Source: Deinococcus radiodurans R1 = ATCC 13939 = DSM 20539
GTDB taxonomy: Bacteria; Deinococcota; Deinococci; Deinococcales; Deinococcaceae
Direction of reading: 5' to 3'
Assembly: GCF_000008565.1 (NCBI RefSeq)
Contig: NC_001263.1
Span: forward strand, 1,380,175 to 1,406,869
DNA: 26,695 nt
Part shown: one piece after another, positions 1,951 through 13,869 of the stretch
How the letters are laid out: each line of letters opens with the position of its first letter
How positions within the stretch are numbered: the first letter of the stretch is position 1
The notes under the pieces: generated by a model
Database searches by the model: none
Told to the model about the DNA's origin: nothing
The model's input: the letters and a program-made list of their open reading frames with translations, nothing else
Translations under genes and position numbers: made by a program

Positions 1951-3555
<1,605 letters not shown>

Positions 3556-3625
3556 CCGATTCACTGGGCTGACTGACCCGCCGGGCTGACCGGAAACGGG
3601 CGCGATCTGTTAGCCTGCGCCCCAT

Positions 3626-6068: not shown

Positions 6069-6641
6069 TCACTTCGTTTCCTGTTCCACCACAGCAGTCA
6101 CGCCCCCACGAATGAAGGCATTCAACCGCTGGGCCACCTCCTGCGGGTCGCCGGTCGGGGTTTCGCGCACCACCGTTTCGTACACCACGCCGCGCAGCAG
6201 GCCGGACACCAGGGGGAGCAGCACCGGGTAAGTCGCCAGCCGCTGACTGCCGAGGGCCTGAGTCAATCCGCCGATCATGGCGTCGTCGAAGGCTTCGCGG
6301 CGCTCACGCAGTTCGGCGCTGCCACCACACGACAGCAGCAGCAGCTCGCGGTGGTTGCCGAGCACCTCAAACAGGGCCGCGAAATCCACCGGCTCGCCGG
6401 GCACCATCAAGGCCTGGAGGTCCGGCGTGATGGCGGCGAGGCGCTCGTCGAGCAGGGCGTCGAGAATGGCTTCGGTGTGGTGAAAGTAGGTGTAGATGTT
6501 GGGGCGCGAGGTGCCGATGCTTTCCGCGATCATGCCCATGGAGACGCCCTCGAACCTGTGACGAAGAAAGAGGCCGGCAGCGGCAGAAAGAATCTCGGCG
6601 CGGCGCTGGTCCGCCGGAAGACGTGTTTTGGTCATGGGCAC
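6069..6641 (-). CDS. TetR/AcrR family transcriptional regulator
   Basis: N-terminal HTH: RRAEILSAAAGLFLRHRFEGVSMGMIAESIGTSRPNIYTYF. It is divergent from the membrane-protein gene at 6762. Confidence 0.88.
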   Translation of the reverse strand: MPMTKTRLPADQRRAEILSAAAGLFLRHRFEGVSMGMIAESIGTSRPNIYTYFHHTEAILDALLDERLAAITPDLQALMVPGEPVDFAALFEVLGNHRELLLLSCGGSAELRERREAFDDAMIGGLTQALGSQRLATYPVLLPLVSGLLRGVVYETVVRETPTGDPQEVAQRLNAFIRGGVTAVVEQETK

Positions 6642-6761: not shown

Positions 6762-7532
6762 ATGTCAACTTCAGGCGGCCTCATCATCGACTGGACCCAG
6801 ATGCACACCTACAACACCGTCATGGCCGTCGCGGCGGGCGCGGGACTGCTCTCGGTCGTCGCGCTCGCTCGGCAAACGGTGCGGGGCGAGCCGTTCGTGC
6901 CTGAAGCGTGGGCGGTGAATTTCGGCATTCTGGGGACGTTGATGACCCTCACCGGCGCCCATATGACGCTCACGTGGCCGCTGGCGAAGTATTTCCCCTT
7001 CGACAACATCATTTTCGGGGAACCGTCCCTGGCCTTCGGCGTCTTGCTGCTGGGCACCGCCGCGTACCTGTGGCGGCGGGCCGAGCACCTGCGCTCCTCC
7101 CCCGACCTGCTCGCCGAGATGGTGGCGTTTCTCAGGCCGCTGCAATTTCTGCTCGTCGGGCTGGGGCTGTCACTGCTCGGGATTGCGGCGGCGGGGGTGG
7201 CCTTCCGGCTGTTCGCCGCGCCGCCCGAGGAACCGATTTCGGGGCGCTTTGCCACTATGCCCTGGCTGGAAGCGAGCGCCATTTCGGGCCTCTACGCCCT
7301 GGTGGGGCTCACGGCGCTGCTGATTCCGCTGGCCCTGCGCCAAGACCCTCACCGCCTGGCCCAGTCGGGGCTGGTGCGCGCAGCAGGCTGGAGGGTGGGG
7401 CTGTCCGGGCTGGTTTGGCTGCTGTTCGGGGCGCTCAACTATTTCACCCACATCGGGCTAATCTTGAACCTCACACGACTAAAGTCGCGTGATTCTCACT
7501 TCGCAGACCATTGCCCGCCGAAGCAGGTCTGA
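6762..7532 (+). CDS. Multi-pass integral membrane protein; its 3' end is replaced by IS-derived sequence (native part 6762..7463, original tail at 9200..9220)
   Basis: Several long hydrophobic segments are present. After codon 234 (ATC at 7461-7463) the frame reads into the IS right end for 22 codons. Joining 7463 to 9200 restores ...GLI-INTTAK-stop. Confidence 0.75.
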
Positions 7533-7610
7533 CATAGCCTCCATGAGCGTTTAAGGTGTCTGAGATTCCCGCAGCCACCAACGCTTCACGCCGAATGTTC
7601 AGCGCAGCGT
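7448..7610 (-). ncRNA. Omega RNA / reRNA of TnpB: scaffold from the tnpB 3' end and IS right end, plus a ~16-nt guide read from flanking DNA (7463..7448). The 5' end cannot be fixed from sequence.
   Basis: Stable helices sit on the minus strand inside and just after the tnpB stop. One is CACGCGAC-UUUA-GUCGUGUG (7472-7491). Another is CCUGC-UUCG-GCGGG (7514-7527), with a flanking CAGACC/GGUCUG helix (7504-7509 / 7526-7531). Established knowledge of TnpB systems places the guide immediately 3' of the right end. No promoter or 5' end was mapped. Confidence 0.6.
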
Positions 7611-8697
7611 TCTCGTCTCGGTCATGGGTTTCCCCACAGTTCGGGCAAGTCCATGTACGGACGGCAAGATTCTTCACTTCGGGATTCTTGAATCCGCAGT
7701 CATGACACAACTGGCTAGATGGAAAGTAGGGGCTGACTTTAGATACCAGTCGCCCGTACCACGCTGCCTTGTATTCCAACTGCCGGATGAACTCACCCCA
7801 GCCCGCATCACTGATGCTCAGTGCAAGGCGGCGATTTTTCCGCATGTTGTCGGGTTTAAGGTGTTCGGTTCCGATGATTTCGTACTCACGCACCAGGGAG
7901 GTGGTGAGCTTGTGAAGGAAATCCTGACGCTTATTGACAATGCGCTTGTGAATCCGAGCCAGCTTGGTTTTCGCTTTCCCGTAACGTGCGCTGCCCTTCT
8001 TCCGTCTGGACAGGGTTTGCTGAGCTTTACGAAGTCTTTTCAGGGTGGAGCGGTAATATTTCGGATTCTGTTCATGCTTAAACCTCACGCCATCGGTCAC
8101 GATGGCAAAATCCTTGATGCCGACATCCACACCCGCTGCAAACTTGGGAGCCGCAGGCAGGTAGGGAATCTCGACTTCACAGAGAACGGACGCTTCGTAA
8201 TGGCCTTCGTGAATACGGCGCACAGTGACATTCAGAATCTTCCCTTGAATATCCTGCTGGCCCTTGGTTTTCACCCATCCCAGCTTAGGAAGTTTGAGCC
8301 TACCTTCCCCAATTTGGATGTTGTTGTTGGTGAATTGAGTCCGGTAGGACTCTCCCGTGCGCTTCTTTCTGAAACGTGGGAATCCTACCTTTTTACCGGA
8401 CTGCTTCACAGTCCGAAAGAAGTTCTTGTACGCGGTCTCAAGGTTTTTCAGCGAGTTCTGCAAAGCAAACTTATCTACTTCCGAGAGCCAGGAGGTTTCT
8501 TCAGCCTGCTTCAGAAGGGTCAGTTCGCTACTCGTTTGCCCGTAGGTCAGTCCCTTCCCGCTTTCCTTGTAGGCCGCAATGCGACGGGCAAGGAAGTGGT
8601 TGTAGACGAACCTTGCGCTACCCAGCGTGCGGTTAATCAGTTCAGTCTGAGCCGCATTTGGGTACAGCCTGACCACGAAAGCCTTATTCCTTATCAT
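7471..8697 (-). CDS. tnpB: TnpB, RuvC-fold RNA-guided DNA endonuclease (OrfB_IS605 family)
   Basis: 408 aa. RuvC-I is [10 protein letters not shown] (D191), RuvC-II is IIGTEHL (E278), RuvC-III is [10 protein letters not shown] (D361). The zinc ribbon is C331xxC334...C351xxC354. Length and residue numbers agree with my memory of ISDra2 TnpB. Confidence 0.95.
7472..7491 (-). promoter_or_regulatory. IS right-end subterminal imperfect hairpin (TnpA recognition; also an omega RNA 3' stem)
   Basis: An 8-bp stem with one A.C mismatch and a 4-nt loop, 8 nt from the inferred end. GAAT lies immediately 5' of the stem and TCAA is at the terminus (minus strand). Confidence 0.8.
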
Positions 8698-9106
8698 GCT
8701 GGCTCTCTATGTATTTCTGAATCTGAGCGCGGGTGTTTTCAGAAACAGTCAGGATGCAATACGACGGGTTCCAGAGATTGCCGCCCCACAGCTTTTCTTT
8801 CAACTGCGGGTAGGCCACGAACATCCGACGTGCGGAAGCGCCTTTCAGCGCCTTCACGAAGTCGGGGATGGCTTGCTGTGGGGTTGCGCTTAGCAGGAGG
8901 TGAACGTGGTCAGGCATGACTTCCATCGTGATGACTTCCAGCCCGTTCTGAGCGGCAATGTCACGCAGGATGTCTTTCAGTCCATCAGCAACCTCACCCA
9001 CCAACACCTGATGACGGTATTTCACGCACCAGATGAGGTGGTATTCAAGCTGATAGACGTAACCCCGGCCTTTCTTCATCTCAAGGGGAAGAATAACATA
9101 TGTCAT
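8684..9106 (-). CDS. tnpA: TnpA, IS200/IS605 Y1 (HUH) single-strand DNA transposase
   Basis: 140 aa, with the HUH motif PDHVHLLL (H67/H69) and the catalytic Tyr in [10 protein letters not shown] (Y132). The N-terminal [14 protein letters not shown] is typical of the Y1_Tnp family. Confidence 0.95.
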
Positions 9107-9163
9107 CTGGAAAAGCTAGAGGCTTCCGCTTTTCATCGCCCTTTTCAGGGCGAGAGGGGCTAA

Positions 9164-9183
9164 CTCATGACTGAAGTCACGAG
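9164..9183 (-). promoter_or_regulatory. IS left-end subterminal imperfect hairpin (TnpA recognition)
   Basis: CTCGTGAC-TTCA-GTCATGAG on the minus strand: an 8-bp stem with an A.C mismatch at the same stem position as the right-end hairpin, 16 nt from the left end. Confidence 0.8.
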
Positions 9184-9199
9184 TGTGCGCCCCTCAAGC

Positions 9200-9204
9200 A
9201 TCAA
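9200..9204 (-). promoter_or_regulatory. 5'-TTGAT target/cleavage pentanucleotide flanking the IS left end (equals the TnpB TAM)
   Basis: The plus strand reads ATCAA at 9200-9204, so the minus strand reads TTGAT immediately 5' of the element. ISDra2 is known to insert 3' of TTGAT. Confidence 0.85.
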
Positions 9205-9238
9205 CACCACCGCGAAGTAAGACACTACGAAAAAGAAG

Positions 9239-9278
9239 AGCTCCCGCCCCGGCACACTTAGCCGGAGCGGGGAGCTTT
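9239..9278. terminator. Bidirectional hairpin terminator between the original end of the membrane gene and the 9306..9905 gene
   Basis: AGCTCCCGCCCCGGC-ACACTTA-GCCGGAGCGGGGAGCT (one bulge), preceded by AAAAAGAAG and followed by TTT. Confidence 0.6.
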
Positions 9279-9305: not shown

Positions 9306-9905
9306 TCAGAGCGCGTTGTGCTTCGCCTGAATGGTGCCTTTTTTGGCGTCCACGACCACGCTGCCGAAAGGCTGAGCGGCCCCGCTGTCCTTGAAGGTCA
9401 CCGTCACCGGCTTTTTCACGTCGTAGCGGGCGCTCTGGAGCTGGGCGTTCTTGAAGACCCAACCGCTCAGCCCCGGCTGGCTGAAGGTGGCCGAGGCGTC
9501 GCCGATGGAGTCTTTCATGTCGGCCAGCATCGCCTTGGTGGGCACGGTCTTGTCGCTGCTGTCGACGATGCTCAGGACGCCGGGTTTGCTGAAATCGACG
9601 ACATACAGGCCCCACACCTGCGCGAAGGCGCTGCCCTGCGGAAAGATGCTGAGGGCTTCGGTCAGGGTCTTGCCCGCCACCTTGAGCGTCTTGCCGTCGT
9701 CCACCACACTGAGGGTGCCGCACTTGAAATTCAGCGGGGTATTGAAGCTGACCGTTTTGCCCTTTACCTGCACGGTGAGGGTGCCGCCGTCGTCAAGACG
9801 CACAGTGTTGCATTGGGCGCCCGCCACCTGGGTCGGGGCCGCCTGAACAGAGGACAGCGCCAGGAGACCGGTCAGGCTAAGCAGCAGAGAAAAAGAAAAT
9901 CGCAT
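9306..9905 (-). CDS. Secreted hypothetical protein
   Basis: 199 aa with the signal peptide MRFSFSLLLSLTGLLALSSVQA-AP. The mature part is beta-strand-rich. No family recognised. Confidence 0.7.
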   Translation of the reverse strand: MRFSFSLLLSLTGLLALSSVQAAPTQVAGAQCNTVRLDDGGTLTVQVKGKTVSFNTPLNFKCGTLSVVDDGKTLKVAGKTLTEALSIFPQGSAFAQVWGLYVVDFSKPGVLSIVDSSDKTVPTKAMLADMKDSIGDASATFSQPGLSGWVFKNAQLQSARYDVKKPVTVTFKDSGAAQPFGSVVVDAKKGTIQAKHNAL

Positions 9906-10011: not shown

Positions 10012-10563
10012 TCAAGCCTGAGCAAACTCGGTGCGGAAGCCGACTTCGAGGAGCTGCTGAATGAGTTCGCCCAACCGCTCGGCATCGAGGTCCGGGTTCT
10101 GCAAGATGGCCGTCGCCACCGAGAACAGCATGACGCGGGTGAGCAGCACCATCTTCGGCGCCCCGATCAGCTGCTCGGTGTTGCGTGTGCGTTCGTCCAT
10201 GCGGGCCATGACGCGCGCCCGGGTGGCCTGAAACAGTGGGCCGCCGCCACTTTGCAACAGCAGCAGCAGGTCACGCTGGGTCAGGAGCACCTCGAACGTC
10301 AGCCGCGCGTCGGGCCGCTTGACTTCAGCGAAGCGGCGGTCGAGTTCCGCGAAATACTGCGCGGTCAGGCGTTCGAGCAGCGTGTCGAGAATGGCCTCGG
10401 TGGAGGGAAAATAGGTGTAGACGTTGGGCCGCGAGGTGCCGATGGCGGCGGCGATCTCGCGGGGACTGACCTGGGCAAAGCCCTGCTCGATGAAGAGGCC
10501 GAGGGCGGTGTCGAGGATTTGCTCCCGACGGGTGTCGGAAGAGAGGCGTTGGCGTGGAGACAT
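10012..10563 (-). CDS. TetR/AcrR family transcriptional regulator (paralog of 6069..6641)
   Basis: HTH: REQILDTALGLFIEQGFAQVSPREIAAAIGTSRPNVYTYF. I prefer the ATG at 10563 (MSPRQR...) over the track start at 10602. Confidence 0.85.
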   Translation of the reverse strand: MSPRQRLSSDTRREQILDTALGLFIEQGFAQVSPREIAAAIGTSRPNVYTYFPSTEAILDTLLERLTAQYFAELDRRFAEVKRPDARLTFEVLLTQRDLLLLLQSGGGPLFQATRARVMARMDERTRNTEQLIGAPKMVLLTRVMLFSVATAILQNPDLDAERLGELIQQLLEVGFRTEFAQA

Positions 10564-10742
10564 GGGCGCAGAGTATAAGCGTGCCCCGGCCCGCTGCGGC
10601 AAGAGCGGGCCGGAGTCGAAGGCAGGGGCACGGACCCTGCAATTATCCTAAGACGTCTTTTCGTTGGCCCGGCGTACTTTCCTAAGATGGTCAGGTCCCA
10701 AAGTTCACGAATGTGACTCCGCACCGGCCTAGGGTGCGAGGC

Positions 10743-12753: not shown

Positions 12754-13869
12754 TTATTTCAGGTGCAAGAACGCCAGAATCGCCTTTGCGATGCCCCGCG
12801 CCACCCGTTCCTGATAGGCCTTGTTGGCGAGCAACGGGCCTTCCTGGTCGCTGTCGCCGAAGCCGATTTCGGTCAGGATGGCGGCGGTATTGGGGTTGCG
12901 AATGACATAGAAGGTGTTGGTGTGCACGCCCCGGTTAGGAGCGCCGGTTTGCTGAAGCAGGCTCGCCTGCACCTTGCTCGCCAGGTCGCGTGAGAAGCTG
13001 ACCTTGGCCTGCGAGAGGATGTCGCCGAGCAGGTTCTGGGCGGTGCCCGCCGCCGTGCGCGTGAGTTCCTGGCCTATGCTGCCTGCACCGTTTTCCTGAA
13101 TGGCGAGAGCGCGTTTGTCGCTGCTGAGCGGCTGGCCGAAGTAATAGGTCTCCACGCCCCGCGAGCCTGGGCTGCCCGCATTGACGTGAATGCTGATATA
13201 GGCACTGACCGTGCCCGCCCGCGCCAGATTGGACCGGGCGTCGAGGTCGGCCCGCTTGTTATCGCTCAGGGACCGGTCGCTCGTGCGGGTCATGACCACG
13301 TCCACGCCTTTGCCGCGCAGCAGCTCACTGACACGCAGGCCCACCGCCAGCGTCACGTCCTTTTCGCGCAGGTGCTTGCTGACCATGCCGGGGTCTATCC
13401 CACCGTGTCCCGGGTCGATCACCACACGGGGCCGGGGAGTCGGTTTCGGTTTGGGCGCCGGCTTGGGTTTGGGGGCGGCCTTGACCACTGGTTTGGGGGC
13501 TGGTTTAGGCACGGCAACCTTTGACACGTCGATCACCAGCCGCTGCGGCAGGTTGCCCTGGCGGGGCACGATCTGAATCTGCGGGTTACCGTAGCCGGGC
13601 GCGAACGTCACGTTGACCGCGCTGCCCGCCGTCGCGTAGGCCACCACGCCCGGAACCTGAAAGCTGCCGCGCTCGGCCCGCAGCAGGGTGTTGAGCCGCA
13701 GGGTGAGGTAGGGCAACGTCACTTTCTTGCTCTGCACCCGGATAGGCTGCATACCCGGCAGGTCGAACACCACCCGGGTGTACCCAGGATGACTGCCCAC
13801 CCGGGGCGCCGCGCAGGCGAGCGAGGACCACAGGGCGAGCACCACGAACAGAAAAAAGCGCCACTTCAC
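12754..13869 (-). CDS. N-acetylmuramoyl-L-alanine amidase (Amidase_3) with an N-terminal AMIN domain and a Pro/Lys linker
   Basis: Signal peptide, then an AMIN-like block (YTRVVFDLPG...LVIDV), the linker PKPAPKPVVKAAPKPKPAPKPKPTPRP, and a catalytic domain VVIDPGHGGIDPG...SIHVNA... Confidence 0.88.
   Translation of the reverse strand: MKWRFFLFVVLALWSSLACAAPRVGSHPGYTRVVFDLPGMQPIRVQSKKVTLPYLTLRLNTLLRAERGSFQVPGVVAYATAGSAVNVTFAPGYGNPQIQIVPRQGNLPQRLVIDVSKVAVPKPAPKPVVKAAPKPKPAPKPKPTPRPRVVIDPGHGGIDPGMVSKHLREKDVTLAVGLRVSELLRGKGVDVVMTRTSDRSLSDNKRADLDARSNLARAGTVSAYISIHVNAGSPGSRGVETYYFGQPLSSDKRALAIQENGAGSIGQELTRTAAGTAQNLLGDILSQAKVSFSRDLASKVQASLLQQTGAPNRGVHTNTFYVIRNPNTAAILTEIGFGDSDQEGPLLANKAYQERVARGIAKAILAFLHLK

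Follow-up and report, generated by a model that had tools for sequence, protein, structure and literature searches.

The minus strand of positions 7464..9199 in the analysed 26,695-nt stretch of the Deinococcus radiodurans R1 chromosome (hereafter the window) is almost certainly occupied by an intact copy of ISDra2, an insertion sequence (IS) of the IS200/IS605 family, which resides in a chromosome of the BAA-816 type and encodes the RNA-guided nuclease TnpB. This is the reference element itself, which goes beyond mere membership in the TnpB family. The system is already known, and nothing in this copy is undescribed; the preliminary description of the window, made from the sequence alone, had likewise called it the key system but not an undescribed one, and correctly so. 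Nothing in the sequence of the window contradicts the ISDra2 assignment. Among transposon-encoded RNA-guided nucleases, ISDra2 TnpB stands as the founding example; it is likely the ancestor type of Cas12, and a widely used miniature genome editor. The present analysis adds a natural empty allele, which is exactly the target predicted by the homing/retention model, and an independent covariation check on the solved RNA fold.

Boundaries and natural vacant site of the element

The element measures 1736 bp, equal to the published length of ISDra2 (Pasternak 2010), and its GC content is 52.7% as opposed to approximately 66% on both sides. Its limits were set by alignment with the empty site and by the behavior of its relatives, in which conservation ends sharply with GGTTCAA, beyond which the flanks are unrelated (9-sequence alignment, see below). 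The left end directly follows the pentanucleotide TTGAT (9200..9204, minus strand), which was recognized in the sequence itself, in the empty allele and at the left ends of the relatives, where the equivalent position is TTGAT or TTGAC. TTGAT is the target and cleavage site of TnpA and, after excision, the transposon-associated motif (TAM) of the TnpB target (Karvelis 2021, PMC8612924; Pasternak 2010). With no more than 19 occurrences in the 26.7-kb window, both strands counted, its presence exactly at the element boundary is not expected by chance. At the right end, the element terminates with ...GAGGTTCAA / ...GTGTGAGGTTCAA at 7464 (minus strand), followed by GATTAGCCCGATGTGG at 7463-7448 of the same strand. 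The preliminary description had placed the system at 7448-9204 with TTGAT abutting the end opposite to the structured RNA, and this span proved to be exactly the guide, the IS and the TAM, the latter read at 9204-9200 on the minus strand, directly 5′ of the element.

Both ends carry subterminal imperfect palindromes, which, together with a Y1/HUH TnpA, define an autonomous IS200/IS605 element. The left one, CTCGTGACTTCAGTCATGAG (9164..9183, minus strand), is located 16 nt inside the boundary and corresponds to the TnpA-binding DNA hairpin; the left end folds as single-stranded DNA with z = -5.3 (9210-9100), and the hairpin is retained in the relatives. The right one, CACGCGACTTTAGTCGTGTG (7472..7491, minus strand), is found once in the window and has a double identity, being a TnpA hairpin as DNA and stem 4 as guide RNA. 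The assignment to ISDra2 itself follows from the TnpA and TnpB sequences, the length of 1736 bp and the fact that insertion took place 3′ of TTGAT and left no target duplication.

The empty allele was found in five other D. radiodurans assemblies (CP150840, CP031500, CP094462, CP015081 and one Logan contig) as ...GGTGGTGTTGAT|GATTAGCCCGATGTGGGTG..., with GTTGAT|GATTAGCCCGATGTGG at the joint. It is the exact junction of both window flanks, with a single TTGAT and no duplication, and because the two flanks are joined precisely, the element is fixed at 7464-9199. The interrupted host gene encodes a membrane protein (Pfam DUF981; 6762..7463, plus strand) and is broken six codons before its stop, and the remainder, ATCAACACCACCGCGAAGTAA, is located at 9200-9220 (plus strand). 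The resulting fusion open reading frame (ORF) runs into the IS (6762-7532, plus strand; 256 aa; AAF10959/Q9RUK4) and was seen on one contig only. Excising 7464-9199 in silico gives a 240-aa DUF981 protein ending with ...HIGLIINTTAK, identical to the protein of other D. radiodurans genomes (P0036); in the five assemblies, a 199-aa gene directly adjoins DUF981. The flank-derived guide segment of this copy (GAUUAGCCCGAUGUGG, 16 nt; 7448..7463, minus strand) is the end of the DUF981 gene read antisense. The vacant site thus consists of the TAM and the 16-nt guide match of this very copy, i.e., the guide target TTGAT+GATTAGCCCGATGTGG occurs naturally as the empty allele.

The window copy differs from DR_1651-1652, the reported single functional ISDra2 copy in ATCC 13939, since the insertion is absent from the five assemblies. 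A further IS-driven strain variation in this neighborhood is a DDE_3 (IS630-like) transposase gene of CP150840 (L020, positions 1736-2744, corresponding approximately to window positions 10650-10700). It lies between the TetR and DUF4142 genes, where the window has none.

TnpA and TnpB proteins

The tnpA gene (8684..9106, minus strand) encodes a HUH/Y1 single-strand DNA transposase of 140 aa and overlaps the start of tnpB by 14 nt. Its product agrees in every residue (100% identity) with the ISDra2 TnpA chains solved by crystallography (PDB 2XM3/2XQC), carries H67-V-H69 and Y132, and was recognized by the family models Pfam Y1_Tnp (147.6 bits) and NCBIfam transpos_IS200.

The tnpB gene (7471..8697, minus strand) encodes a protein of 408 aa, which is 100% identical over residues 1-408 to the chains PDB 8BF8/8EX9/8EXA/8H1J, deposited as 'RNA-guided DNA endonuclease TnpB'; the exact protein look-up returned the same annotation, and gave D. 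radiodurans proteins for the neighboring genes. Its Pfam domains, HTH_OrfB_IS605 (PF12323, 64 bits), OrfB_IS605 (PF01385, 89 bits) and Cas12f1-like_TNB (PF07282, 91 bits), make up the TnpB-family set of HTH/WED-REC, OrfB_IS605 (RuvC) and zinc-ribbon TNB, all above the curated cut-offs, and the NCBIfam model IS200_TnpB (NF038281) scored 490 bits (cut-off 425). The RuvC motifs begin at residues 187, 274 (IIGTEHL) and 358 and yield the catalytic residues D191, E278 and D361. Four zinc-binding cysteines (C331, C334, C351 and C354) are positioned between E278 and D361 in the motifs CHDC (331-334) and CPNC (351-354). Both the D-E-D triad and the CCCC zinc finger are therefore intact, and the same residues were named in the study by cryo-electron microscopy (cryo-EM) of Nakagawa 2023 (PMC10097598). 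A contig scan with TnpB as the query returned only relatives of at most 85% identity, with no D. radiodurans locus among the matches.

These results bear out, in every detail checked, what the preliminary description had said of the proteins. The Y1 transposase is complete, as claimed, and TnpA alone suffices for transposition (Pasternak 2010). The triad D191, E278 and D361, with a CxxC...CxxC zinc ribbon between RuvC-II and RuvC-III, was given exactly as found here, and the identity with ISDra2 TnpB, which it had named, extends over all 408 aa of the solved chains. The family search that it had proposed for the 408-aa protein gave the three Pfam domains and the IS200_TnpB match listed above.

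Guide RNA

According to the cryo-EM structure, the TnpB-bound RNA comprises a 116-nt scaffold and a 16-nt guide, forms stems 1-4 and a pseudoknot, and has many of its bases named by position (Nakagawa 2023, PMC10097598). With scaffold position -n taken as window coordinate 7463+n on the minus strand, the guide-RNA (reRNA/omegaRNA) scaffold, positions -116 to -1, corresponds to 7464..7579. The window agrees with each base that the cryo-EM description specifies, and all helices form: stem 1 (7579-7572 with 7562-7555), the pseudoknot (7568-7565 with 7469-7466), stem 2 (7547-7543 with 7499-7495), stem 3a (7540-7534 with 7511-7505), stem 3b (7527-7523 with 7518-7514) and stem 4 (7492-7484 with 7479-7471, with a UUUA loop at 7483-7480), all on the minus strand. 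The stop codon of tnpB occupies scaffold positions -10 to -8, and longer precursors of the guide RNA extend to about 7694. The arrangement is that of the TnpB family, in which the structured guide RNA is encoded where tnpB and the element terminate on the right and continues into the flank.

The minus-strand RNA of 7610-7448 folds with -65.2 kcal/mol (z = -3.3), and none of 200 shuffled sequences folded equally well. The minimum-free-energy structure contains stems 1, 3b and 4 and pairs the 3′ tail otherwise than in the cryo-EM pseudoknot, for which reason covariation was counted on the experimental structure. The alignment consisted of 9 sequences, i.e., the window and eight Deinococcus relatives with TnpB of 55-85% identity. 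In it, 97.6% of the cells were paired, compared to 30-43% in the slid controls. Two-sided changes were present in 12 of the 37 pairs, compared to 0-1 such pairs in the slid controls, and this result was reached by none of the 500 shuffles. The strongly structured RNA at and overlapping the 3′ end of tnpB, which the preliminary description had reported, is thus recovered both by the fold statistics and by helices that co-vary in relatives.

Proposed mechanism and alternative explanations

For these very proteins, the activity of ISDra2 is known from published work. TnpA alone suffices for excision and for insertion 3′ of TTGAT, and TnpB is dispensable for both (Pasternak 2010). An RNA of the right end, approximately 150 nt in length with the last ~16 nt derived from the flank, co-purifies with TnpB, and the protein cuts double-stranded DNA at a distance of 15-21 bp from the TAM with 5′ overhangs, provided that 5′-TTGAT and a guide match are present (Karvelis 2021, PMC8612924). 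This agrees with the omega/reRNA-guided endonuclease with a TTGAT TAM that the preliminary description had named. The replacement D191A abolished the activity both in vitro and in vivo, E278A did so in vivo, and plasmid interference by TnpB was shown in the same work (Karvelis 2021, PMC8612924). Its authors proposed that the donor joint left by excision is cleaved by TnpB and that recombination then restores the element, and this retention model was tested in Geobacillus relatives (Meers 2023). TnpB also processes its own mRNA on the 5′ side into the guide RNA (Nety 2023). For D. radiodurans itself, 5′ mRNA processing by TnpB and retention via homologous repair are inferred or shown only for relatives.

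On this basis, the following course of events may be proposed for the window copy. TnpA (140 aa, HUH/Y1) would excise the top strand and insert it in the form of a single-stranded circle, by means of the subterminal hairpins and TTGAT. Transcription of tnpB would read through into the flank, and TnpB would bind the 3′ part of the transcript, consisting of the ~116-nt scaffold (four stems and the pseudoknot), which extends over the tnpB terminus and the element's right end, and then the 16-nt flank guide. The ribonucleoprotein would be directed to double-stranded DNA with 5′-TTGAT followed by the guide match, which is the scarless donor joint after TnpA excision, and the single RuvC site (D191/E278/D361) would cut this joint 15-21 bp from the TAM. 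Repair of the break from the IS-bearing sister copy would then retain the element ('peel, paste and copy').

Several points weigh against this reading. The ISDra2 copy in DUF981 is missing from the five other D. radiodurans assemblies, and thus the insertion is not universal in the species. A search of the whole window against Rfam 15 at the gathering threshold gave no scoring family, so the RNA assignment draws on the literature and on the covariation count, and the guide RNA of this particular copy is itself a prediction. The last ~35 codons of tnpB fall within the scaffold, part of whose conservation is accordingly owed to the protein. Finally, in an older genetic study, TnpB was reported to down-regulate ISDra2 transposition (Pasternak 2013, in the account of a citing paper), an effect which is not obviously predicted by the retention model. 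Alongside these, a promoter and terminator scan within the IS found nothing above shuffles and no candidate for RNA 3′-end formation. As to the first point, the absence of the window copy from five assemblies fits a published comparison, according to which BAA-816 has seven complete ISDra2 copies, six of which are absent from ATCC 13939 strains. As to the overlap, residues 376-408 at the C-terminus of TnpB are disordered and dispensable according to published work; given this and the compensatory changes, the RNA is the more likely constraint in the part shared with tnpB.

The reported down-regulation (Pasternak 2013) is also the starting point of the first alternative, in which TnpB acts in its native host mainly as a negative regulator of TnpA excision and insertion, and RNA-guided cleavage, as seen in vitro or in E. 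coli, is secondary. The dispensability of TnpB for both steps of transposition (Pasternak 2010) is in line with this. However, cutting and re-filling of empty donor joints would itself look like reduced excision, DNA cleavage by this very protein depends on RNA, TAM and RuvC (Karvelis 2021, PMC8612924), and retention was directly shown for relatives (Meers 2023). We consider a mainly regulatory role unlikely, albeit the regulator and homing views are compatible and not mutually exclusive.

According to the second alternative, the right-end structure acts purely as DNA, i.e., as the TnpA hairpin of the single-stranded transposition intermediate, and this copy gives no functional RNA. Indeed, the sequence of stem 4 is the right-end palindrome, similar to the left-end one, and the right end alone, folded as DNA, is weakly better than shuffles (z = -2.0). 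Yet covariation supports stems 1, 2, 3a and 3b, and these, together with the fully paired pseudoknot, are located 30-116 nt inside the element, far past the TnpA hairpin. Moreover, RNA of the right-end region co-purifies with TnpB and was resolved by cryo-EM (PMC8612924, PMC10097598), and a TnpB-bound RNA of ~130-150 nt was already shown under E. coli expression. A role as DNA only is therefore very improbable. The remaining alternative, a decayed or domesticated TnpB, either nuclease-dead (TldR-type regulator-like) or a pseudogene, was rejected despite the degenerate ISDra2 copies known in the species (DR_0177-0178), since neither ORF is truncated, the two proteins are 100% identical to the active ones, and nothing is damaged in the RuvC triad, the zinc finger, the two ends or the scaffold, which is complete.

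The right-end terminus in distant elements

The last 33 nt of ISDra2 (7464-7496, minus strand) are 100% identical in plasmids of Clostridium botulinum and C. sporogenes (L019, positions 2501-2533). Within the conserved terminal 31-33 nt lie the right-end TnpA cleavage site, stem 4 and the pseudoknot's 3′ strand. In the clostridial copies, they are located 37 nt downstream of a TnpB which is ~20% identical to that of ISDra2, and the element has an ISDra2-like left-end hairpin preceded by TTTAT. The exact 31-mer is also present in 18 metagenome and 3 viral contigs (L025-L045) of 22-62% GC, with TnpB of 45-77% identity, a sample biased by the restriction of the search to exact matches. Some closer Deinococcus relatives differ in the terminal stretch at 1-7 positions.

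The RNA of the C. botulinum element (L019, positions 2440-2533) is short upstream of the conserved stem 4 and lies entirely downstream of the tnpB stop. It contains a stem UACGU...ACGUA whose loop includes GGAAA, with a possible pseudoknot with the terminal GGUUC, which suggests, speculatively, a much more compact guide RNA in this element. Rfam at the gathering threshold gave no family for the Clostridium locus.

The identity of right ends across phyla was rejected as a new finding, the homology between the ends of ISDra2 and of clostridial IStrons being already published (Tourasse 2014); the exact terminal identity is at most a sharper statement of this known relationship. It is conceivable, though rather doubtful, that the terminal RNA/DNA module does not follow the nuclease gene: TnpB lineages might exchange it, or a shared TnpA acting in trans might keep it fixed. 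In that case, the guide-RNA core and the nuclease would be less co-evolved than assumed.

Genomic neighborhood

The rest of the window consists of ordinary chromosomal housekeeping genes. The neighbors include a topoisomerase C-terminus, alpha-amylase, amidase, MsrB, the YchF GTPase, N-acetylmuramoyl-L-alanine amidase, an AIR synthase-related protein and ribulose-phosphate epimerase, among others. The 199-aa gene next to the insertion (9306-9905) encodes a signal peptide and belongs to no Pfam family. Just downstream of it, a strong GC-rich hairpin with a T-run (9243-9271, minus strand), ~40 nt upstream of TTGAT, is a likely terminator, and read-through into the left end of the IS is therefore probably limited. 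The pair of the DUF981 and 199-aa genes with the insertion is flanked by two TetR-family regulator genes with similar N-termini (6069-6641 and 10012-10602, both minus strand), for the start codons of which the gene callers disagree (versions of 156-196 aa in the cluster lists).

Comparison with known systems

Like IS608/ISHp608 of Helicobacter pylori, ISDra2 has the peel-and-paste single-strand mechanism, a Y1 TnpA, subterminal hairpins and tnpB as a passenger gene. The two differ in the target, which is TTAC in IS608 and TTGAT in ISDra2, and their TnpA proteins match with only E = 1e-22. The clostridial group A IStrons (CdISt1) and low-GC IS200/IS605 relatives share with ISDra2 the TTGAT target as well as homologous left and right ends with their palindromes (Tourasse 2014), and in C. 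botulinum plasmids and low-GC metagenome contigs the right end is identical over the terminal 31-33 nt. Unlike in ISDra2, a group I intron may be present or tnpA absent in these elements; their TnpB proteins are 20-50% identical to that of ISDra2, and the RNA upstream of stem 4 differs.

The likeness to Cas12f and type V systems lies in the split RuvC, into which a zinc-finger TNB domain is inserted, in the RNA core made of guide, pseudoknot and stem, and in the cleavage of double-stranded DNA that depends on a 5′ motif and produces staggered cuts distal to it. In contrast to these systems, the window element is without a CRISPR array or adaptation genes, its guide is invariable, being the single flank sequence that the insertion site dictates, and TnpB works as a monomer together with a single long RNA (Karvelis 2021, PMC8612924). 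The array search of the window returned no CRISPR array, just two weak tandem repeats of 2-3 copies (3547-3592 and 13448-13483). Moreover, TnpB scored far below the cut-offs of the NCBIfam Cas12 models, with 47.7 bits for Cas12f2 (NF049972; cut-off 450) and 110 for C2c8 (cut-off 350), and assignment to CRISPR-Cas type V (Cas12f) was rejected on both grounds. The preliminary description, which had noted a Cas12-like layout without an array, thus holds in its domain set as well as in this absence: ISDra2 TnpB works like a minimal Cas12f, yet it does not belong to Cas12.

The closest comparison is with ISDra2 (IS8301) of D. radiodurans as described in the literature (Karvelis 2021; Nakagawa 2023; Sasnauskas 2023; Pasternak 2010). 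Proteins, length, TTGAT, scaffold bases and catalytic residues all match the window, and the sole difference of the window copy is its insertion site in the DUF981 gene and hence its 16-nt guide.

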